Positions 3,662-59,810 of a stretch of DNA of 64,000 bases are shown in pieces; position 1 is the stretch's first letter, and the number at the start of each line of letters is the position of its first letter. Both the position numbers and the translations under genes were made by a program. Origin of the DNA: Bacillota bacterium. Lineage in GTDB: Bacteria > Bacillota > Dethiobacteria > DTU022. The notes beneath the pieces were generated by a model, which saw nothing but the letters and a program-made list of their open reading frames with translations, was not told where the DNA came from and did no database searches. The DNA is taken from the NCBI GenBank assembly GCA_011389985.1, contig JAABTH010000001.1, positions 4,158 through 68,157 on the forward strand, read 5' to 3'.

Positions 3662-3701
3662 TCCTGCATATGGTATATACTGTGATATATATTATATGCA
3701 G
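3662..3701. promoter_or_regulatory. 9-bp inverted repeat CCTGCATAT-N22-ATATGCAGG spanning the putative vapB promoter -10 and overlapping the vapB RBS; candidate VapB autoregulation operator
   Basis: A perfect inverted repeat seen directly in the sequence. The right arm overlaps the GGAG Shine-Dalgarno 12 nt before the vapB ATG. Confidence 0.4.
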
Positions 3702-3714
3702 GAGTGTGATCATT

Positions 3715-3942
3715 ATGGATAGTGCTAAGCTTTTTTACAACGGCCGCAGCCAGGCGGTGCGCTTGCCCCGGGAATATCGCTTCGAGGGCGAAGAAGTGTA
3801 CATTAAAAAAATTGGCAGTGCGGTTGTTTTGATGCCTAAAAAGAAGGTTTGGGAAGTGCATGAAGCCGGGTTGGATTACTTCAGCGATGATTATATGGAA
3901 AATAGGAAACAACCTGACCTGAAAAAGAGGGATGACTTATGA
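3715..3942 (+). CDS. vapB: type II antitoxin VapB (AbrB/MazE/SpoVT swapped-hairpin family)
   Basis: [41 protein letters not shown] is a typical SpoVT/AbrB-type antitoxin N-domain. Its stop overlaps the vapC start (ATGA). Confidence 0.75.
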
Positions 3943-4343
3943 TCAGGTATCTGCTTGATACGAATATATGTATTTACCTGATTAAAGAAAAAGACCCTGC
4001 TTTGAAGCTGAAACTTTATAAAAAAGGGATTGGATGCTGCGCCATATCTGCCATTACCCTAGCGGAGTTAGCTTATGGGATAGAAAAAAGCAGTAAGGTG
4101 GAGCAAAATAAATTGGCGCTAGGTTTATTTCTTGCCCCTTTTGAGCTATTGTCTTTTCCAACGGATGCCGCCTTAACCTACGGAAGTATAAGGCAGCAAC
4201 TTGAACAGCGTGGGGAAATAATTGGGGGTTATGATCTGCTTATTGCAGCTCATGCTTTATCGGAAAGTTTAACTTTAGTGACCAATAATGTAGCTGAGTT
4301 TTCAAGGGTGGATGGCCTGCCTGTCGAAAACTGGAGTAACTGA
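3939..4343 (+). CDS. vapC: type II toxin VapC (PIN-domain ribonuclease)
   Basis: 134-aa ORF beginning [16 protein letters not shown], with the conserved PIN acidic residues D7 and E42 and the PIN fold pattern. Translationally coupled to vapB. Confidence 0.85.
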
Positions 4344-8306: not shown

Positions 8307-8711
8307 GTAGAGCTTTGAGTGATTGCACCATATAACCCTATAAGACATTATACAAACTCGCATTGCTGCCCAAAAGAGAATAAGTGCCTCGAAAATAGCG
8401 AACGGAAAAAGTTCTGCAGGCATCAGATAATCGAATAAAAGCCAGCGGGAAGCAACAAATCTGATTATAGTGAAGGCAAAGGTAGCGGACAATTGGTATT
8501 GATGCAAGTACAGTTCCGCCAGCAGCTAAAACACTTGTAAAAGCTTTATTACTCGTCAGAGAAACATCCTTGCACCTGCACGTTTATCAAGGTTTAAAAA
8601 CCATTATACTCTTTTTCATTTCCCGGCTTCCTAACTAAGGTTTAATCACTTTAATTCCGGGGATACCAAAATATCTTTGAATAGATCTAATATGTACAAG
8701 AGAATCGGATT

Positions 8712-50988: not shown

Positions 50989-51807
50989 ATGGATAAGTTG
51001 ATCGTAACGGTTGCGCCAACAGGAAATGTGCCTACCAGGAAAACAAATCCTTACCTGCCGGTAACTCCCGAAGAGATTGCAGAGGATCTATACCGCTGTT
51101 ACAAAGCCGGTGCATCTGTTGCCCATATTCATGCCCGGGATGAACAAGGTAAACCTTCAGCCGACCCGGATCTGTTTCAGGCAATTACAGAACTAATCCG
51201 TGAAAAATGCGACATCATTATTCAGTTATCTACCGGTGCGCGTGCCGGCAAAAGCGCTGATGAACGCAGCGCCTGCATAGCCCTAAAGCCTGAAATGGCC
51301 AGCCTTTCAACCGGATCAACAAATTTTGCCCGTTCGGTTAATTATAACCCGCCGGCGTTGATCAAAGAGCTTGCCGGGCGAATGGAGAATCATGGCGTTA
51401 AGCCTGAAATAGAGGTTTTCGATCTTTCAGCCCTTGAGTATGCCATCTATCTGGTCGAAAAAAAGATCCTGAAAGGGCCCATGCACATTAATCTTGTTCT
51501 GGGTGTGCCCGGATCTATCAGCGGAAGCCCCCGCAATTTATTTTTTCTGGTGGAAAGTTTGCCTGCCGGTTGCACGTGGTCTGTGACAAGCATAGGCAGT
51601 AGCCACCGGCAATTGAGTGCCCTTGCTCTTATTCTGGGCGGGCATGTTCGCACCGGTCTTGAAGATGTTCTGGAACTGGAAGCCGGAAAGCCTGCTTCAA
51701 ATCTTAAACTGGTTGAAAGAATCGTTGCTTTGGCCCGTTTTTACGGTCGTGAGCCTGCTACACCGGCAGAGGCCCGCTCTATTCTCGGTTTACCTGCACT
51801 TTTCTGA
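50989..51807 (+). CDS. BKACE-family enzyme (3-keto-5-aminohexanoate cleavage enzyme-like, DUF849)
   Basis: LIVTVAPTGNVPT...HIHARDEQGKP...IIIQLSTG...INLVLGVPG matches the Kce/BKACE TIM-barrel signature. Confidence 0.7.
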   Translation: MDKLIVTVAPTGNVPTRKTNPYLPVTPEEIAEDLYRCYKAGASVAHIHARDEQGKPSADPDLFQAITELIREKCDIIIQLSTGARAGKSADERSACIALKPEMASLSTGSTNFARSVNYNPPALIKELAGRMENHGVKPEIEVFDLSALEYAIYLVEKKILKGPMHINLVLGVPGSISGSPRNLFFLVESLPAGCTWSVTSIGSSHRQLSALALILGGHVRTGLEDVLELEAGKPASNLKLVERIVALARFYGREPATPAEARSILGLPALF

Positions 51808-51833
51808 GATTTCCAAGAATTCCTGAGATATTG

Positions 51834-51863
51834 TTGACACAACAGGCACTGGTAAGATAATAT
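51834..51863 (+). promoter_or_regulatory. sigma-A-type promoter TTGACA-N17-ATAATA for the hisC-like gene leader
   Basis: Seen directly, ~120 nt upstream of the start codon. Confidence 0.45.
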
Positions 51864-51912
51864 TGGTATTAAGAAAAGCAGAATTAGTAACATTTTTTAA
51901 ACCTGCTGCTCA

Positions 51913-51970
51913 TAGCTAACAGATATGAGGGAGCACCGGGGTATTATCCCGCGTGCTCTTAATTTATTTT
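51913..51970 (+). promoter_or_regulatory. leader attenuator: TAG-N4-CAG-N4-GAG triplet array abutting a strong intrinsic terminator (10-bp bulged stem, 7-nt loop) and U-tract, 13 nt before the RBS of the hisC-like gene; candidate HutP-type antitermination site
   Basis: Seen directly: cat-TAG-ctaa-CAG-atat-GAG-ggag, then GAGCACCGGG-gtattat-CCCGcGTGCTC, then TTAATTTATTTT. The third NAG overlaps the 5' arm of the hairpin. Confidence 0.5.
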
Positions 51971-51983
51971 CGGAGGGGAAAAG

Positions 51984-53087
51984 ATGCAAATAATCAGTAA
52001 GCGTGCGAACCTGGATACAATTAAGGCTTATGTGCCCGGTAAACCTGTTGAAGAGGTGGAACGTGAACTGGGTGTAAAAGTTGAAGCAAAACTGGCCTCT
52101 AATGAAAATACTCTGGGGCCTTCTCCCCTGGCCGTTCGAGCAATTATTGAATCAGCCGATCATGTGAACCTATATCCTGATGGAAGCTGTCACTATCTGC
52201 GCAATGCGTTGGCCAGTAAAATTGGAGTTGATCCCGGCCAGCTAATGGTCACGAATGGAGCTGACGAGGCTCTCTCACTGATTGCCCGCACTTACATTAA
52301 CCCCGGCGAAGAAACAGTAATGCCTGATCCAAGCTTTCCCCAATATGAATTTGCAACAAGGGTGATGGACGGCAAACCACAGGTGGTTCCTCTTAGAAAA
52401 GATTTCAGCTATGATTTAGATGCGATGCTTTCTGCAGTTAATGAACATACTCGCATATTCTATTTATGCAGCCCAAATAACCCGACAGGAACCATTCTGA
52501 CAAAACCTGAACTTGAGAAAGCGCTTGATCAATTACCCGGGAACGTTTTGGTTGTGCTTGATGAAGCCTATTATGAATATGTGACCGAACCTGATTATTT
52601 CAATGCGCTGGATTATATCAGGAGCGGATATCCTGTTATAGCGCTTCGAACATTCTCCAAGATTTATGGCCTGGCAGGCTTGCGGGTGGGCTACGCTATA
52701 GCTGACGAAATGATAATAAAAGATCTGAATTCCGTGCGTGAACCCTTCAATGTGAACCGTGTTGCCCAGGTTGCTGCAGCTGCTGCGCTCGAAGATGATC
52801 AGCACGTTACGAGGAGCCTTGAAACAGTTGAAAGAGGAAAAGAATTACTTTTCGGCGAGCTTAAGTCGCTTGGTTTTTACTGTTACCCCACTCAGACCAA
52901 CTTTATTTTTGTTGATTTCAGACAGCCAACAGATCAGCTCTTTCAGGAACTGCTTAGAAAAGGCATTATTATAAGACCGGGCGGTATCTATGGTTATCCT
53001 GAACATGCCCGGGTGACAATTGGTACGGATATGGAAAACAAAAAGTTCCTGGAGAAACTGAAAGAAATTGTGAGCGCAAAGGTTTGA
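51984..53087 (+). CDS. hisC: histidinol-phosphate/aromatic aminotransferase family protein (class II PLP aminotransferase, HisC-like)
   Basis: LASNENTLGPSP at the N-terminus. PLP-lysine context FSKIYGLAGLRVGY. 367 aa. Confidence 0.8.
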   Translation: MQIISKRANLDTIKAYVPGKPVEEVERELGVKVEAKLASNENTLGPSPLAVRAIIESADHVNLYPDGSCHYLRNALASKIGVDPGQLMVTNGADEALSLIARTYINPGEETVMPDPSFPQYEFATRVMDGKPQVVPLRKDFSYDLDAMLSAVNEHTRIFYLCSPNNPTGTILTKPELEKALDQLPGNVLVVLDEAYYEYVTEPDYFNALDYIRSGYPVIALRTFSKIYGLAGLRVGYAIADEMIIKDLNSVREPFNVNRVAQVAAAAALEDDQHVTRSLETVERGKELLFGELKSLGFYCYPTQTNFIFVDFRQPTDQLFQELLRKGIIIRPGGIYGYPEHARVTIGTDMENKKFLEKLKEIVSAKV

Positions 53088-53105: not shown

Positions 53106-55127
53106 ATGCTCCATCCGTTATTCTATCCCCGGGCAGTCGCCGTTATCGGCTCTGCCGCTGAAGGTAAAATTGGCCATACCCTGATCAGCCAGCTGGTTGA
53201 AGGTGGTTTCAGCAACGTTTTTGCTGTAAACCCCAAATCACAGGGAGTCGGTACAGTACCCGGTTTTGAATCGGTAAGTGTTATTGGCAGCCCGGTAGAC
53301 CTGGCTGTTATAGCTTCACCTGCATCAACTGTCAGCGCAATTCTTGAAGATTGCGGAAAAGCCGGCGTTAAGGCGGCGATTGTAATTACTGCCGGATTTT
53401 CTGAAACCGGCAACATCGATGGCGAAATCGAGCTTAAAGCTATTGCAGACAGATATAAAATTCGCTTTGCCGGTCCTAACTGTGCAGGCATAATCAATAA
53501 CCACCACAATCTTTCTCTGACCCTTGAAACAGTACCGCCACTGGGCAAAACAGCCCTTGTTTCTCAAAGTGGCGCTCTTGGTGGTTTAATTCTCTCCTGG
53601 GCTGAAGAACAGGGCCTGGGGTTTTCAAAATTTATCAGCTACGGCAATGCTGCTGATATAAATGAGACAGATCTTCTGGAATATCTGATCAACGACAGCG
53701 AAACTGAAGTTGTGGCTTTATATGTGGAAAGTGTAAAAGACGGGCGTCGTTTTTATGAAGTTGCTTCCCGGTTAACAAAGACAAAACCGCTTGTCGTGAT
53801 CAAATCAGGACGAACTGAATCAGGCAGAAGGGCTGCTCAGTCGCATACCGGTTCAATGGCCGGCTCAGATGCTGTTTTTGACAGTGTGTTGCTTGATTGT
53901 GGCGCTATGAGAGTTTATAACGTGGAGGAAATGTTTGACCTCTGTAAGGGATTGACATCCCTCCCCCCCTTGAAAGGGAAGCGTCTAGCAGTTGTGACAA
54001 ATTCAGGAGGTCCAGGGGTGATGGCTGCAGACCATGCTGAATCTATCGGTTTGGATCTAGCCGAACCGGGCAAAAGACTCCGTGAAAAGCTTTCAGTTTT
54101 TCTGCCTCCCCAGTGTGCCCTGAAAAACCCTATTGATTTAACCGTTGAGGGAACTGAAGAAGGATACAGAAAAGCGCTTATGGCTGTACTGGAAGAATAT
54201 GATGCTGCTGTCGCAGTTTACGTGGGCACCCCCAGTCTTGCCTCGGGGCCGATTGCCGCAGGGGTATGCCAGGTAGCAATGGATACAGAAAAACCGGTTG
54301 TTCCCACTTTTATGGCGGGCAATACAGTAACAGAAGCATTAAAGCGTTTTAAGGAGTGCGGACTGCCAAATTATGCAACAGGAGAAAGGGCAGTTTCAGT
54401 GTTGGCTAAAATGGCGGAATATGAGAATGGAAAGCAGAAAGAGGCAGCCCTTTTAAAATATGACGGACCGGTGACAGGTCTGCCCGCCCGGGGACAATTG
54501 CTCGAGCCTGAAGCGATGACTTTGTTAAAGGAAAACGATCTGCCCGTGCCGCGGTTTTTATTTGCATTAAACCCGGATGATGCAGTTGGCGCTGCAGCGG
54601 AGATAGGCTATCCTGTTGTTATGAAAGTTGTTTCTCCTGATATCCTGCACAAGTCGGAATATGGCGGGGTAATAATAAATATTATGGGTGCTAAAGAGGT
54701 TGAGGCTGCTTTTGAAAAGATAGAAGATGGTGCAGCCGGGAAAGATTTTCGAGGCGTTGTAATTTATCCTATGATTAAAGATGCGAGGGAAGTAATACTG
54801 GGGCTCTATCGCGATCCGCAGTTTGGCCCGGTTGTTGCTTTCGGCATGGGCGGTATATACACGGAAATCATTGGAGATATTGCTTTAAGGCTTGCCCCGC
54901 TGACCCAAAAGAGAGCAGCCGGGATGATCAGGGAAATAAAAACTTTACCTTTGCTGGAAGGTATGCGCGGGCAGAAGGCAGTCAATTTCGATCTGCTCGA
55001 AAGAATGCTTGTCAGCTTTTCTTTATTACCCTTTAAGTATCCGGATATTACAGAAATGGATCTCAATCCTGTATTCCTGAAAGAGGATGATATATTTGTC
55101 GGGGATGTGCGGATAATCCGAGCCTGA
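53106..55127 (+). CDS. ADP-forming acyl-CoA synthetase (acetate--CoA ligase (ADP-forming) family, fused alpha/beta subunits)
   Basis: N-terminal CoA-binding and succinyl-CoA-synthetase-like domains (AVIGSAAEGKIGHTL...), then a C-terminal ATP-grasp domain. 673 aa. Confidence 0.8.
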   Translation: MLHPLFYPRAVAVIGSAAEGKIGHTLISQLVEGGFSNVFAVNPKSQGVGTVPGFESVSVIGSPVDLAVIASPASTVSAILEDCGKAGVKAAIVITAGFSETGNIDGEIELKAIADRYKIRFAGPNCAGIINNHHNLSLTLETVPPLGKTALVSQSGALGGLILSWAEEQGLGFSKFISYGNAADINETDLLEYLINDSETEVVALYVESVKDGRRFYEVASRLTKTKPLVVIKSGRTESGRRAAQSHTGSMAGSDAVFDSVLLDCGAMRVYNVEEMFDLCKGLTSLPPLKGKRLAVVTNSGGPGVMAADHAESIGLDLAEPGKRLREKLSVFLPPQCALKNPIDLTVEGTEEGYRKALMAVLEEYDAAVAVYVGTPSLASGPIAAGVCQVAMDTEKPVVPTFMAGNTVTEALKRFKECGLPNYATGERAVSVLAKMAEYENGKQKEAALLKYDGPVTGLPARGQLLEPEAMTLLKENDLPVPRFLFALNPDDAVGAAAEIGYPVVMKVVSPDILHKSEYGGVIINIMGAKEVEAAFEKIEDGAAGKDFRGVVIYPMIKDAREVILGLYRDPQFGPVVAFGMGGIYTEIIGDIALRLAPLTQKRAAGMIREIKTLPLLEGMRGQKAVNFDLLERMLVSFSLLPFKYPDITEMDLNPVFLKEDDIFVGDVRIIRA

Positions 55128-55229
55128 AAACCGGATATATTTGACATTGATTTCAGCGGTATTTATAGTAAAATAAAGTTGTGTTTAATTTCACAACAGC
55201 GTTTAAACCGCTCTCGGAGGATATAATAT

Positions 55230-55676
55230 TTGAGTACTTTAGGTAGTATTGCTATAGGTATCGCCATTGCCGAAGCTGGTGAAGAGGCAGAAACGTTAAT
55301 TAGCGAGGCGCGAAAACTGGGCTATAAGGCTATCCGCAGCCAGGTAGGTTCAATGTCAATGGATAAGGTTATTGCCGCTATTGAGACAGCTTCGCGCCGA
55401 GAAGGGATAATTTCCGACACATATCACCAGGAACATGCTCTTTACCATGCTATAATTGATGCTTTGCTCGGAGTTTGCCGGGGCCAGCTTGAATTGGGTA
55501 ACATTGTAAGGACCGTAGGGTTAAGCTATTCGGTGGTGTGTGGACCGATCAAGTCTGACTGCAACAGGGAAGAAAATTGGATCATGGTAGTTTTATACGG
55601 AACGATTGGAGCTCCGATTAAAGGTTTTGAGCATGAGGCAATTGGCCTCGGCACTTACCATATAGACACCAGATAA
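55230..55676 (+). CDS. hutP: HutP-family RNA-binding antiterminator protein
   Basis: 148 aa. VGSMSMDKVIAAIETASRREGII...HALYHAIIDALLGVCRGQ...VRTVGL...LYGTIGAPIKGFEHEAIGLGTYHI aligns closely with B. subtilis HutP (VGSMDAHKVIAAIETASKKSGVI...HALYHATMEALHGVTRGE...LRTVGL...LYGTIGAPIKGLEHETFGVGINHI). TTG start with a GGAGG RBS. A TTGACA-N17-TATAGT promoter lies at ~55143. Confidence 0.8.
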   Translation: MSTLGSIAIGIAIAEAGEEAETLISEARKLGYKAIRSQVGSMSMDKVIAAIETASRREGIISDTYHQEHALYHAIIDALLGVCRGQLELGNIVRTVGLSYSVVCGPIKSDCNREENWIMVVLYGTIGAPIKGFEHEAIGLGTYHIDTR

Positions 55677-55690
55677 AAGTCAGGCAATAT

Positions 55691-55806
55691 CAGATTGCAG
55701 GTGTCAGCCCGGCCTTGCAGTAACAAACCAAATAGTTAATGCTTTTTACAGGCACATTAGACAACAGACAAGAGAGTGTTCTAGATTCTGGCGCTCTTTT
55801 TTTGTT
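55691..55806 (+). promoter_or_regulatory. hutP-iorA intergenic leader with two NAG-N4-NAG-N4-NAG arrays (CAG-attg-CAG-gtgt-CAG at 55691-55707; TAG-acaa-CAG-acaa-GAG at 55758-55774), an imperfect hairpin (55770-55798) and T-run (55796-55806); candidate HutP-dependent terminator/antiterminator
   Basis: Triplet spacing seen directly. The second array overlaps the 5' arm of the hairpin. The stem is imperfect (7 bp with one mismatch), so terminator strength is uncertain. Confidence 0.45.
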
Positions 55807-55843: not shown

Positions 55844-57721
55844 TTGAGCTTAAAATTTATATCCGGCAATGAAGCGATTGCGTACGGTTCACTCCGGGCC
55901 GGAGTTAAGGTTGTTTCAGGTTATCCCGGAACCCCTTCGTCAGAAGTAATTACAAGTTTGTTGAAGAATAAACCGGAAGGTGTATATGTTGAATGGAGCA
56001 GTAATGAAAAGGTAGCTTTTGAAATTGCAGCGGCTGCTTCCTGGGCGGGACAGCGTGCTTTATGCACCATGAAAATGTCCGGTCTGAACGTGGCCTATGA
56101 TTCACTGGCTTCTGTTGCTTATTCCGGCTGCAGCGGTGCTCTGGTAGTATATGTTGCTGATGATCCCGGTGTTAGTGCAGGGATGTGCGAGCAGGACTCA
56201 AGAGGTTTTGCCCTGATGTCGGATATGCCCATGCTTGAGCCTGCCTCGGTTGAAGAAGCTTACAGCTTAACCCGGTTTGCCTTTGAGCTGTCAGAGTCAA
56301 CCGGGACCCCTGTTTTTATCAGGATGGTAACGGCTACTGCTCTTTCATATGGTGGAATGGATCTAGAGGACCCTCCTGTGTTCCCGGAGCGCGAACCGAA
56401 ACTGATAAAAGATATTGCCAAGTATACAAAAGCCGGTTCAGCAATCTGCCTCGATCAGCACAGTGATGTAATTGAGCGCTTGAGTGAAGCAGGAGAGATC
56501 ATCAGGGGAAAAAAGATAAACAGGTTATCGCTTTCTCCTAAAGCCGGCGGCCTTGGCATTATTGTTGCCGGAGCTGTTTTCCCCTACCTGGAAGAAGGTT
56601 TAAGGCTGGTTGAAGAACATGGTTTCAAAATCGGTCCCGTTTCAACTTTAAAAGTGACAGCGACTGTGCCTTTTCCTGCTGAAGAGGTTAGAAGCTTAAT
56701 CAAGCATTGTTCATCCCTGCTTATTTTGGAAGAGCTCGAGCCCCACCTGGAAAAAGATCTTTATATCGAGGCTCATAAGTTTGGTTTTTCCGGAAAGATA
56801 ATCGGCAAACTTGACGGCACCCTGAGCCGAATTGGTGATTATTCCGCTGAACAAGTGGTTAAAGGGATCGCGGCAGCGTTTACTCTTAATTTACCCGCCG
56901 GTATTTTCGGAGATGAATATAAAGGTGAGAAACTTACTGCTTCAAGGCCTATTACCACCTGTGCCGGCTGCCCACACCGCGGAACATTCTTGGCAATCAA
57001 TAAAGCTATAAAAGAGCTTAAATTTAAAAAAGATGAAGTGGTGGTCACCGGTGACATCGGCTGCACCATTCTTGGCATGAACCCGCCATTTAACACGGTA
57101 TGGACAGAGATATCGATGGGTGCAAGCATCGGATTTGCCCAGGGCTATTATCACAGCGGGGTAAAAACCCCGGTTATCGCCACCATAGGTGATTCTACAT
57201 TTTTCCATGCAGGCATACCATCTCTGGTAAATGCTATTCAGCACCAGGTTCCATTAACGCTGATTATAATGGATAACGGCTGGACCAGTATGACCGGAAT
57301 GCAGGTCAGCCCGGGTACTGATGAAAAGTTTCAGCAGCCAGGCAATCAGCGTCTTGATCTGGCTAAAATATTGCCGGCTCTGGGTATCGATCATTTTAAA
57401 ATGATTAATCCATACGAACTTGAAGAGTCTACTGCGGCAATTCGCGAAGCGATGACTCTTCCCGGTGTAAAGGTAATTCTATCCCGCCAGGAATGTGCAA
57501 TTCAGGCTATGCGTCAGGGTAAACGTTACGGGAAAAGCACGGTTATTGAAGATAACTGTAATAAATGCAAGCTGTGCATTACTGTTACCGGCTGCCCGGC
57601 AATTTCTCTCGGAGAGGAATCGATCGTTATAGATCCGGCTTTATGCTATGGCTGCGGTCTTTGCAGCCAGGTGTGCAATCGCGAAGCGATTGAAAGGGGG
57701 CCTGTAAAAGATGTATTATGA
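55844..57721 (+). CDS. iorA: indolepyruvate:ferredoxin oxidoreductase subunit alpha (IorA; TPP enzyme with 2x[4Fe-4S])
   Basis: ISGNEAIAYGSLRAGVKVVSGYPGTPSSEV at the N-terminus, a TPP-binding GDIGC/GDSTFFH region, and C-terminal CNKCKLCITVTGCP / CYGCGLCSQVC. Start placed at a TTG with a GGAGG RBS 7 nt upstream; the track ORF starts earlier, inside the leader. Confidence 0.85.
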   Translation: MSLKFISGNEAIAYGSLRAGVKVVSGYPGTPSSEVITSLLKNKPEGVYVEWSSNEKVAFEIAAAASWAGQRALCTMKMSGLNVAYDSLASVAYSGCSGALVVYVADDPGVSAGMCEQDSRGFALMSDMPMLEPASVEEAYSLTRFAFELSESTGTPVFIRMVTATALSYGGMDLEDPPVFPEREPKLIKDIAKYTKAGSAICLDQHSDVIERLSEAGEIIRGKKINRLSLSPKAGGLGIIVAGAVFPYLEEGLRLVEEHGFKIGPVSTLKVTATVPFPAEEVRSLIKHCSSLLILEELEPHLEKDLYIEAHKFGFSGKIIGKLDGTLSRIGDYSAEQVVKGIAAAFTLNLPAGIFGDEYKGEKLTASRPITTCAGCPHRGTFLAINKAIKELKFKKDEVVVTGDIGCTILGMNPPFNTVWTEISMGASIGFAQGYYHSGVKTPVIATIGDSTFFHAGIPSLVNAIQHQVPLTLIIMDNGWTSMTGMQVSPGTDEKFQQPGNQRLDLAKILPALGIDHFKMINPYELEESTAAIREAMTLPGVKVILSRQECAIQAMRQGKRYGKSTVIEDNCNKCKLCITVTGCPAISLGEESIVIDPALCYGCGLCSQVCNREAIERGPVKDVL

Positions 57722-58307
57722 TATTTATCTGGTTGGCGTAGGCGGCCAGGGTATACTTACAATCGGTGAAATTATTGCCGAAGCGGCCTTAAAACTTGAT
57801 ATTCCTGCCAATTTTTACCCGACCAAGGGGATGGCTCAGCGGGGTGGTTTTGTTAAAGCTCAGCTGCGTCTGGGTAGTTACAATGTGGGTCCAAGTATCG
57901 CTGAAAAAGGAGCTAACCTGGTTATTGCCATGGAGCTTTCCGAATCGCTGAAAGCACTGCGTTACTTTAAACCGGATGGTGATTTTGCCCTTTACAGTTC
58001 GGTCTGGTCTCCTACGGCTGTAATGCTTGGAAAAGCGCCATATCCGGCAGTAGAAGAAGTTTTAGCAGAGATTAACAAAACAGGTGGAAGGACTATCCAC
58101 ATCAAACCTGAAGAAAGACCGCAATTTGAAGGACAGCCCGTCCCTGAAAATGTTTATGTTTTAGGAGCTGTATGTCGCCATTCTTCATTGGGCCGGTTTA
58201 TCGACCCTGAGGAAATCAGGGCTACCATAAAGACCAGGTGGAAAAAGGGAATAGAAAGAAATCTATATACTTTTGATGCCGGGTTTAATCTTAACAATCA
58301 AGATTAA
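57711..58307 (+). CDS. iorB: indolepyruvate:ferredoxin oxidoreductase subunit beta (IorB)
   Basis: MYYDIYLVGVGGQGILTIGEIIAEAA is the pyruvate/ketoisovalerate oxidoreductase gamma-like signature. Overlaps the iorA stop (ATGA). Confidence 0.85.
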   Translation: MYYDIYLVGVGGQGILTIGEIIAEAALKLDIPANFYPTKGMAQRGGFVKAQLRLGSYNVGPSIAEKGANLVIAMELSESLKALRYFKPDGDFALYSSVWSPTAVMLGKAPYPAVEEVLAEINKTGGRTIHIKPEERPQFEGQPVPENVYVLGAVCRHSSLGRFIDPEEIRATIKTRWKKGIERNLYTFDAGFNLNNQD

Positions 58308-58367: not shown

Positions 58368-59810
58368 GTGTTCAAAATAACCGCGTATCGTTCAAATTAT
58401 AGTCAACAGTTATCCCCGAAGTTAAGCTGGTTCTGCGAAAGCCAGATCGAAGAGATTCACAGCGCTACAATTGATGTTCTTGAGAGAGTTGGTGTAAGGG
58501 TTGATCATGATCAAGCCCTCAGACTTTTAAAAGATGCAGGGTGTATAGTAAAAGACCGCGTGGCCAGAATTCCGGGCTGGCTCGTCGATGAAGCAATCAA
58601 ACTTGCTCCTTCAAAAGTCAATATTTACAGCCGTGAGGGCGAACCGGCGATGAGCCTGGAAAAGAATTGCACTTATTATGGCACTGGTTCAGATTTGCCC
58701 TTTCACCTTGATCTTGAAACGGGAGAAAGGCGGGGATCTGTTAAACAAGATATCATTAATGCTGCAGCTATTATGGAAAATCTTCCTAATTTTGATTTTG
58801 TGATGAGCTACGCCATACCAGGCGATGTAGAGGCTGCAAGAGGCTGCCTGCACCAATTTGCAGCGCTCACCCTACATACGGCCAAGCCAGTTATCTTTAC
58901 CGCTTTGAGTGAAGAGCACACCAGGACAATTATCGAAATGGCCGCTGCCGCGGCCGGTTCTTATGACAACCTGCGGGCTAAACCTTATATTATTATCTAC
59001 GATGAACCAATTTCACCCCTGGTCCATACTTATGATGGTATTGCTAAAATGTTTGCCTGCATAGAACATGGCATACCGGTTATTTATACACCCGGTGTTG
59101 TTGCCGGAGGAACCTGCCCGGTAACAAAGGCCGGCACAATTGTGCAGATGAACGCGGAATCTCTTTCCGGCCTTGTTATAGCCCAGCTTAAGCAAAAGGG
59201 CGCTGCCGTTATTATTGGCGGTGGGGCAACCCCGATGGATATGAAAACTACGGCGACGCTTTATGGCTCACCGGAGGCGGCGATGAACTATGCTGCTATG
59301 ACAGAGCTTGCTCAGTATTACAGGTTACCCAATTTCACTGAGGCGGGCTGCTGCAATGCTCCTGTGCCCGACGCCCAGGCCGGGATGGAAGCGGCAATTG
59401 GTCTTTTGCTTAACCAGCTGTGCGGCGCCAACCTGGTTCACGACGTGGGCTACCTTGATTGTGGAAAAACCGGATCACTGCCTTTCCTGGTAATGTGTGA
59501 TGATTTTATCAGCGCTGTTCGGTATATCGGGGCAGGAACCCCGATCAACAGCGATACAATCGGCGTCGATACCATTGTAGAGGTTGGCCCGGCAGGCCAT
59601 TATCTTGGTGAAGATCATACCATGAAACATTTTCGTAATGAGATCTGGATGCCTGCAGTATTTAACAGAATGATGTATGAAGTCTGGGAGCAGCTGGGCA
59701 GTAAAGACTGTTTGGATCTGGCCCGGGAAAAGGTAATCAATATTCTAAAGGATGAGCCGACTAATGAACTATCGCCGGCTATATCCAGGCAGATTATAAG
59801 CTTGTTGTAA
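58368..59810 (+). CDS. MttB-superfamily methyltransferase (trimethylamine methyltransferase family, non-pyrrolysine member; quaternary-amine:corrinoid methyltransferase-like)
   Basis: 480 aa, continuous with no in-frame TAG. Conserved MttB-family N-terminal region (QIEEIHSATIDVLERVGVRVDHDQALRLLKDAGC). Start codon uncertain: the GTG at 58368 abuts the GGAGG. Confidence 0.8.
   Translation: MFKITAYRSNYSQQLSPKLSWFCESQIEEIHSATIDVLERVGVRVDHDQALRLLKDAGCIVKDRVARIPGWLVDEAIKLAPSKVNIYSREGEPAMSLEKNCTYYGTGSDLPFHLDLETGERRGSVKQDIINAAAIMENLPNFDFVMSYAIPGDVEAARGCLHQFAALTLHTAKPVIFTALSEEHTRTIIEMAAAAAGSYDNLRAKPYIIIYDEPISPLVHTYDGIAKMFACIEHGIPVIYTPGVVAGGTCPVTKAGTIVQMNAESLSGLVIAQLKQKGAAVIIGGGATPMDMKTTATLYGSPEAAMNYAAMTELAQYYRLPNFTEAGCCNAPVPDAQAGMEAAIGLLLNQLCGANLVHDVGYLDCGKTGSLPFLVMCDDFISAVRYIGAGTPINSDTIGVDTIVEVGPAGHYLGEDHTMKHFRNEIWMPAVFNRMMYEVWEQLGSKDCLDLAREKVINILKDEPTNELSPAISRQIISLL

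Follow-up and report, generated by a model that had tools for sequence, protein, structure and literature searches.

HutP is described in the literature read as the regulator of one operon, the hut genes of Bacillus, acting through two RNA sites. It reads only the A and G of each NAG triplet (PMC2425495). Site I is described as single-stranded; site II, a second cluster of three NAG triplets 12 to 17 nt downstream and inside the hairpin, is required in vivo (PMC2425495). Antitermination is explained by binding of the two sites, which flank a GC-rich stem, and a flanking helix is not mentioned (PMC2425495; PMC12591593). Here, an RNA element of this type is described from a 64,000-nt stretch of DNA (the window; contig JAABTH010000001.1 of assembly GCA_011389985.1) from a metagenome-assembled genome (MAG) of the Bacillota. 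The element lies in a leader (51834-51983) ahead of genes for a HisC-type aminotransferase and a fused ADP-forming acyl-CoA synthetase, and the leader is very probably a HutP-responsive transcription attenuator of this operon. Judged from its sequence, it is a real and conserved RNA switch of the HutP-read kind, predicted to act on an unusual amino-acid fermentation operon and not on classical histidine-utilization genes.

Compared with the hut system of B. subtilis (hutP-terminator-hutHUIGM), four features are shared (the hutP gene, site I, the terminator and covariance-model homology) and two are not (site II; the hut location and targets). Both systems have a HutP-family protein that scores above the cut-off of the NCBIfam equivalog, an array of three NAG triplets, spaced by 4 nt, that immediately precedes a GC-rich terminator arm (CCCA-UAG-aucu-UAG-acga-UAG-GGGGCU in B. 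subtilis) and a possible flanking helix, and one covariance model matches both elements. In contrast to B. subtilis, where the element separates hutP from its targets, the window element has no site II and occupies a leader close to a promoter, 3.2 kb upstream of hutP, which has a separate promoter. The aminotransferase, the ADP-forming acyl-CoA synthetase and iorAB take the place of hutHUIG as targets, there are two attenuators at the locus, and the organism is an anaerobic Clostridia-class MAG.

An earlier note on this DNA had proposed a near-consensus promoter at 51834 driving a leader of about 120 nt, about 3 kb upstream of hutP. The promoter agrees with consensus at 11 of 12 positions and is among the two best promoter matches within 47-62 kb, and its TTGACA and TAnnAT boxes occupy the same alignment position in about 20 orthologous leaders. 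The leader is about 115 nt long, counted from an inferred start, and the distance to hutP is 3.2 kb. As the note had it, the array TAG-ctaa-CAG-atat-GAG (51913-51929) abuts the terminator stem, with a gap of 0 nt. The terminator hairpin (GGAGCACCGGGGU/AUCCCG-C-GUGCUCU, 51930-51959) has a single bulged C and a free energy of -19.3 kcal/mol, and its stem end is 13 nt from the GGAGG ribosome-binding site (RBS), the distance originally given. The whole leader folds at -37 kcal/mol (z = -3.4), and none of 200 shuffles was equally good. Around the array it reads gcuCA-UAG-cuaa-CAG-auau-GAG-GGAGcacc, and the array is the predicted HutP recognition array, equivalent to site I of B. subtilis. A second cluster further upstream (AAG, CAG and UAG at 51871-51887) is irregularly spaced and unconserved and was rejected.

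The bare motif is at chance frequency (30 matches to AG-N5-AG-N5-AG in the window against 26.4 ± 5.1 expected) and so proves nothing by itself. A loose array-plus-terminator scan of the window gave three matches against 1.7 in shuffles, and the third of these, at 4081, lies inside an open reading frame (ORF; 3939-4343) and is spurious. Comparison with other genomes was therefore needed. From 468 relatives seen, 80 hutP loci (reference genomes and MAGs, 984 kb) were taken, using an alignment of HutP homologues. The hutP strand had 109 array-plus-terminator matches and the opposite strand 3, with the consensus cuCA-NAG-N4-NAG-NNAU-NAG-GGAG running into the 5' arm of the terminator.

A covariance model (R1) was built from 59 elements next to hutP in other genomes, with no window or Bacillus sequences. 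In the window it found 51899-51943 (45.5 bits, E = 3.9e-10) as the sole match, the next best scoring 11 bits (128 kb of searched strand). Among loci on which it had not been trained, R1 matched the mapped site I of B. subtilis (UAG-aucu-UAG-acga-UAG; 21.8 bits, E = 0.006) and other Bacillales elements (18.5-35.7 bits, the highest in Sediminibacillus). It also picked further leaders with a 5-nt spacer and Desulfosporosinus elements with one degenerate triplet. The hisC leader and the elements directly downstream of hutP in Desulfosporosinus, Sporomusa, Thermacetogenium-like MAGs and Bacillus are thus members of one RNA family. No R1 match was found in 522 kb of hisC-like loci from metagenomes. 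That scan, made by way of the aminotransferase, yielded relatives at most 55% identical, none with the element, and served as a negative control only. From these matches the element is regarded as homologous to the B. subtilis hut attenuator, in a new single-site form. The chance-frequency check proposed in the earlier note, run here on the window, goes formally against the bare motif, whereas the composite element is, by these scores, far beyond chance.

The hairpin could instead be the constitutive terminator of the upstream BKACE operon, beside a promoter-like site and a NAG array present by chance. The frequency of the bare motif would suit this explanation, as would the position of the terminator, about 125 nt beyond the BKACE stop codon (51807). 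It is effectively refuted by the R1 match from a model trained elsewhere, by the strand bias of 109 to 3, and by the joint conservation of promoter, array and terminator in orthologues that have a different upstream gene.

More than 20 loci of Syntrophomonadaceae-type MAGs have such an orthologous leader, 1.7 to 2.1 kb ahead of hutP and alignable from promoter to RBS. The gene after the leader in these MAGs encodes histidine ammonia-lyase (hutH equivalog, 710 bits vs 539) and is followed by hutP and an MTTB-family gene. Such loci (L006, L009, L020, L053 and others) share with the window the promoter, CUGCUGCUCA, the array (UAG-N4-UAG-N4-GAG), GGAGCACCGGG and the terminator; their HutP is 51 to 58% and their MTTB neighbour 70 to 80% identical to those of the window. 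They differ in that the leader drives hutH and hutP itself, as an autoregulated operon, whereas in the window the aminotransferase and acyl-CoA synthetase genes replace hutH, and iorAB is inserted between hutP and the MTTB-family gene. The loci are unannotated, and no description of them was found in the literature searched. The consensus structure of 20 orthologues shows compensatory changes in the terminator (for example, pair 35/57 is AU in 14 and GC in 5). The one syntenic MAG (L001) has a HutP 95% identical to that of the window and the same order of aminotransferase, acyl-CoA synthetase, hutP, iorAB and MTTB genes. Its contig begins inside the same terminator, so that only the 3' half of the leader and the RBS are comparable. 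As order and terminator are the same, the arrangement is not unique to the window's contig.

It is very improbable that the element is read by a factor other than HutP, whether a TRAP-like protein, a metabolite riboswitch or a leader peptide. TRAP also reads (G/U)AG repeats, of which it needs 9 to 11 with 2- to 3-nt spacers. In the trp leader of B. subtilis this oligomeric protein likewise decides between terminator and antiterminator, an analogy noted in PMC2425495. There, it reads 11 triplets with 2- to 3-nt spacers, its binding promotes termination by disrupting the antiterminator, and its fold is unrelated to that of HutP. In contrast, the window element has three triplets with 4-nt spacers, falling short of a TRAP-type repeat, and the proposed binding prevents termination. 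A leader peptide could start at AUG 51925, which opens a short ORF across the terminator. This AUG has no RBS and is not conserved, being lost where the third triplet is UAG, and the peptide was rejected. Rfam covariance models gave no match at gathering score across the window, and no family matched the element even at E ≤ 10, when a search of 51780-52000 gave only chance matches on the wrong strand (E above 2). In addition, between hutP loci and the hisC-like control loci, the element was seen only in the former.

How HutP binding is coupled to read-through is suggested by the bases on either side of the array. In every lineage the array is bordered by complementary sequences: the last 4 to 7 nt before it can pair with the first nucleotides after it, forming a helix called P1 here (Table 1). 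In a gapless alignment of 59 non-window sequences, 83.9% of cells were paired, against 38 to 64% when the partner strand was slid by 1 to 3 columns. The covariation score was 0.378, compared with 0.155 or less in the slid controls, and none of 500 shuffles reached the observed value. At one pair, G-C (35 sequences) alternates with A-U (15); another is U-A in 40, C-G in 10 and U-G in 8, and the pairing picture repeats on an independent sequence set. A hairpin CUCAUA/UAUGAG, seen in the single-sequence fold, is not kept in three relatives (L015, L041 and L042) and was dropped in favour of P1. In the classical Bacillus hut attenuators (B. subtilis, L161 1650-1700; L162-L166) an AGCCC/GGGCU helix is possible around UAG-N4-UAG-N4-UAG. 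As the 3' strand of P1 is the bottom of the 5' arm of the terminator, the two structures are mutually exclusive. The P1 hairpin alone has about -4.4 kcal/mol. With the terminator formed the leader has -31.3 kcal/mol, and with P1 forced and the loop open it has -18.4 kcal/mol, so that the RNA alone would terminate and the default is OFF.

In the HutP-RNA crystal the RNA follows a triangular path, and the 5' end of nucleotide 1 is in contact with the phosphate that follows nucleotide 21 (PMC2425495). This meeting of the ends of the 21-mer is the geometry needed by a closing helix. We lean, if only slightly, towards P1 as the device that would couple HutP binding to read-through. Transcription would begin at the promoter at 51834 and, by default, the RNA would fold the terminator (51930-51970) and transcription would stop 13 nt before the RBS. 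A ligand-loaded HutP hexamer (55230-55676), the ligand most likely being L-histidine with Mg2+, would bind the three triplets (51913-51929) with one face. The triplets would stand in the 19-nt loop of a weak hairpin closed by the 5-bp stem P1 (51907-11 with 51931-35). By holding the loop in a closed triangular form, HutP would stabilize P1, the base of the terminator could not form beside the U-tract, and read-through would follow. The iorAB leader downstream of hutP would act in the same way, and the ligand would jointly switch on a transaminase, a 2-oxoacid:ferredoxin oxidoreductase and an ATP-yielding acyl-CoA synthetase. If P1 is functional, this would resemble BglG/SacY-RAT and ANTAR systems, in which a protein stabilizes a weak antiterminator hairpin overlapping the 5' arm of the terminator. 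Proteins and RNA motifs are unrelated, and here a hexamer would read single-stranded loop triplets, not a structured RAT or dual hexaloops.

The earlier note had remarked that only one triplet set is evident in the leader. This stands, since the hairpin has no NAG between 51934 and 51972, and a second cluster is not conserved in the more than 20 orthologous leaders; a single cluster is the rule in the clade. The two-site mechanism of B. subtilis, implied by the note's comparison, does not fit a leader in which site II is absent, and something other than a two-site wrap therefore more likely couples binding to read-through. It is nevertheless conceivable, though unlikely, that HutP acts as in B. 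subtilis, binding single-stranded triplets and melting the terminator sterically or from both ends. P1 would then have no part, and an unrecognized degenerate second site, or another RNA on the second face of the hexamer, would complete the complex. Two-site melting is the published mechanism (PMC2425495; review PMC12591593), and the array has exactly the same position, directly against the GC-rich 5' arm, as its B. subtilis counterpart. In Desulfosporosinus relatives (L024, L052, L060, L066, L075, ~8478-8540), UUG replaces one NAG of the first cluster, and a second cluster (UAG-acga-AAG-uuua-UAG) lies in the apical part of the terminator, a site II-like layout. Against the two-site model stand the absence of a second array from window and orthologues and the helix-like covariation of the flanking bases throughout the lineages, Bacillus included, which this model does not explain.

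A second attenuator precedes iorAB. The true start of iorA is TTG 55844, behind GGAGG at 55832-36; the ATG chosen by the ORF finder (55739) would enclose the attenuator inside the gene. Orthologues of this leader (L001, L002 and L169) retain P1 (GGCAC/GUGCU, GGAGCAC/GUGCUUU) and the AG of all three triplets. UAG, CAG and GAG do occur in this order in both leaders of the window, as had been noticed, and this agreement is a coincidence. Orthologues of the hisC type mostly have UAG-UAG-GAG, those of the iorA type UAG/CAG, CAG/UAG and GAG/AAG, so that the first base varies freely. The array had also been placed identically relative to the 5' stem arm in both leaders, which is incorrect: the gap is 0 nt in the hisC leader, whereas the iorA leader has its last triplet 4 nt within the stem. 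Near the start of the iorA leader, CAG-attg-CAG-gtgt-CAG (55691-55707) is unconserved in L002 and L169; it was rejected as a site and is probably fortuitous.

With two attenuators at the locus, the idea of a small regulon of at least two HutP-dependent attenuators, put forward in the earlier note, is supported. It agrees with the R1 match, the orthologous leaders, the hutP gene 3.2 kb downstream and the relatives with several attenuators. At least two per hutP locus are common among these (L002, L035, L049, L050, L063, L069, L071 and L073). Four loci have two complete attenuators, each with array and terminator, in tandem within about 150 nt before one gene (L035 1550-1750, L050 5937-6100, L069 2227-2380, L073 6135-6310). 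In L002 (1290-2753), whose HutP is 85% identical to that of the window, a similar leader with AAG-auaa-CAG-auau-UAG-GGAGCAU and a terminator precedes a gene for a UbiD-family decarboxylase, another non-Hut target. A UbiX-like flavoprotein gene lies upstream.

Several points weigh against this interpretation of the leader and its operon. The tail of the terminator (UUAAUUUAUUUU, 51959-51970) contains A's that break the U-tract, which is hence moderate. P1 is only 5 bp long and its independent compensatory events are few, perhaps in 5 to 8 lineages. A single cluster may bind HutP too weakly in the absence of site II. The training set of R1 was collected by a NAG-N4 regular expression, which fixed the AG positions, and R1 does not detect the iorA leader, because its register differs. 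Position 81 of the window's HutP is Asp, not Glu. Finally, the aminotransferase (51984-53087) passes the NCBIfam equivalog for biosynthetic hisC (344 bits against a cut-off of 276.6), and a biosynthetic enzyme induced by histidine would be odd; the catabolic reading therefore draws on its operon partners only.

The window's HutP scores 164 bits against a cut-off of 155 for the NCBIfam HutP equivalog and matches the solved B. subtilis HutP (PDB 1wmq/1vea) with E = 4e-36. It keeps the equivalents of Y69, H73, H77, R88, R98, T99, E137 and H138, which we take, from the HutP structure papers, to be the residues that bind Mg2+, histidine and RNA. Their conservation suggests that this HutP would bind RNA and antiterminate in a manner dependent on L-histidine and Mg2+. 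Asp in place of E81 also occurs in relatives whose leader drives a hutH above the equivalog cut-off. As the metal- and histidine-ligand equivalents are kept and hutH-driving relatives have the same Asp, L-histidine is the most likely signal, and that the signal is histidine can be called likely. It is doubtful that the switch is real but senses another ligand (an aromatic amino acid, a histidine derivative or a betaine), whose catabolism the operons would then encode. An IOR-type oxidoreductase with an aminotransferase and an acyl-CoA synthetase is a set typical of aromatic amino-acid fermentation, hutH was not found in the window, hutP is linked to an MTTB-family methyltransferase gene in about 30 loci, and the Asp at position 81 points the same way. 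Against such a ligand are the retention of H73, H77, H138, R88, R98 and Y69, the same Asp where the leader drives an equivalog-grade hutH, and the membership of the aminotransferase in the imidazole-recognizing HisC family.

With histidine as signal, the operons probably encode the route histidine to imidazole-pyruvate to imidazol-4-ylacetyl-CoA to imidazole-acetate and ATP; aromatic amino acids are a real alternative as substrates. A precedent is the catabolism of histidine in Thermococcus, with an aminotransferase and an imidazolylacetyl-CoA synthetase, the oxidoreductase step being unassigned (PMC9986279). In both, transamination would be followed by oxidative decarboxylation through a ferredoxin oxidoreductase, and an ADP-forming acyl-CoA synthetase would then yield ATP (PMC9986279). 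They differ in that the Thermococcus pathway is archaeal, has scattered enzymes and has no known HutP regulation, whereas the substrates of the window enzymes are predicted only. The acyl-CoA synthetase (53106-55127) falls under every NCBIfam equivalog cut-off, and IorA and IorB are also below the equivalog cut-offs (IOR_alpha 570 bits, IOR_beta 126 bits). An independent Peptococcaceae MAG (L064, 8001-14310) has, in order, hutP, a HutP element with terminator, an IOR-like/POR enzyme, an ADP-forming acyl-CoA synthetase, a class I/II aminotransferase and a corrinoid protein. The three enzyme functions of the window are thus found there in one operon behind hutP and an element.

The sequence features, the homology to HutP-associated elements, the covariation of terminator and P1 and the gene content are observed; from them we infer that the window's HutP binds the leader, what P1 does, which ligand is sensed and which pathway is encoded. 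A wider proposal is more tentative. From Bacillus to Clostridia, HutP might generally clamp the three-NAG loop of a conserved antiterminator hairpin, P1, with no two-site wrap melting, and here have been moved onto a previously unrecognized bacterial histidine fermentation. The enzymes of this fermentation would be a HisC-type transaminase, an IorAB-type imidazole-pyruvate:ferredoxin oxidoreductase and an ADP-forming imidazolylacetyl-CoA synthetase. The literature search found no paper on HutP outside Bacillales or on the flanking helix, which is not proof that none exists.

Table 1. Features of the locus (window positions) and P1 strands by lineage
Feature	Position	Strand	Details
Promoter, sigma-70-type	51834..51861	+	TTGACA 51834-51839, 16-nt spacer, GATAAT 51856-51861
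5' leader transcript, ~115 nt	51868..51983	+	Start inferred from -10 box; A/U-rich
P1, 5' strand (UGCUC)	51907..51911	+	Pairs with 51931-51935
NAG array UAG-cuaa-CAG-auau-GAG	51913..51929	+	TAG 51913-15, CAG 51920-22, GAG 51927-29; 7-nt period, 4-nt spacers
Intrinsic terminator	51930..51970	+	Hairpin 51930-51959, U-rich tail 51959-51970
P1, 3' strand (GAGCA)	51931..51935	+	Same bases as bottom of terminator 5' arm
RBS (GGAGG)	51972..51976	+	7 nt ahead of ATG 51984
Regulated gene 1, HisC-type class I/II aminotransferase	51984..53087	+	Pfam Aminotran_1_2 5.9e-68
Regulated gene 2, fused ADP-forming acyl-CoA synthetase	53106..55127	+	Pfam CoA_binding, Succ_CoA_lig, ATP-grasp_5; 18 nt after gene 1
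hutP's own promoter	55141..55169	+	TTGACA, 17 nt, TATAGT; 11/12 positions
hutP, presumed trans-acting antiterminator protein	55230..55676	+	Pfam HutP 2.4e-25; 3.2 kb downstream of leader
Second attenuator (iorAB leader)	55751..55800	+	P1 GGCAC 55751-55 with GUGUU 55776-80; array UAG-acaa-CAG-acaa-GAG 55758-55774; terminator 55770-55800
iorA and iorB, genes under second attenuator	55844..58307	+	Pfam matches
P1, window			UGCUC/GAGCA
P1, Thermacetogenium-like MAGs			CUACUC/GAGUAG
P1, Sporomusaceae MAG			UUUGCCU/AGGCAAA
P1, Sporomusa			CCC/GGG
P1, B. subtilis			AGCCC/GGGCU
P1, iorA-type leaders			GGCAC/GUGCU

Between the hutP promoter and the hutP start lies an inverted repeat of 6 perfect base pairs around an 8-nt loop (GTTGTGtttaatttCACAAC, 55178-55197), which could be an operator or a hairpin of the 5' untranslated region. 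In Oceanobacillus and Lysinibacillus (L164 1130-1148; L165 1131-1149) an extra NAG-N4-NAG-N4-NAG lies about 55 to 70 nt upstream of the hutP start codon; these arrays hint at binding of HutP to its own leader.

The window has an MTTB-family gene at 58368-59810. In about 30 MAG loci (L006, L008, L012, L020, L053, L055 and about 25 others) hutP is directly followed by a gene for a non-pyrrolysine MTTB-family methyltransferase, 70 to 80% identical to that of the window, and a BKACE gene is often found about 1 kb upstream in these loci. In the window, MtaA-like, QueG-like and MFS genes are also present just upstream. Histidine betaine is one, speculative, explanation for the tie of a histidine sensor to a methylamine or betaine methyltransferase. 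Elsewhere in the window, the small ORF 3939-4343, which contains the chance NAG array and hairpin at 4081-4140, resembles a PIN/VapC-type toxin gene, and ORF 3670-3942 may encode its antitoxin.

The view of HutP as a one-operon regulator is widened by the window and about 80 related loci. Switches of the HutP type are widespread in anaerobic Firmicutes, often several per locus, with transporters and non-Hut enzymes under their control. In most of them, one NAG cluster is enclosed by a covarying helix in competition with the terminator. Together this offers a simple, testable revision of the HutP mechanism, also in the model B. subtilis. For the organism, the locus outlines a probable ATP-yielding route for the anaerobic breakdown of histidine (or aromatic amino acids), with a concrete candidate for each step. 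IorAB is a candidate 2-oxoacid:ferredoxin oxidoreductase for the imidazole keto-acid, a step with no identified enzyme even in the archaea for which the pathway was proposed (PMC9986279). If the wider proposal is true, the archaeal pathway would gain a candidate for its missing oxidoreductase step.

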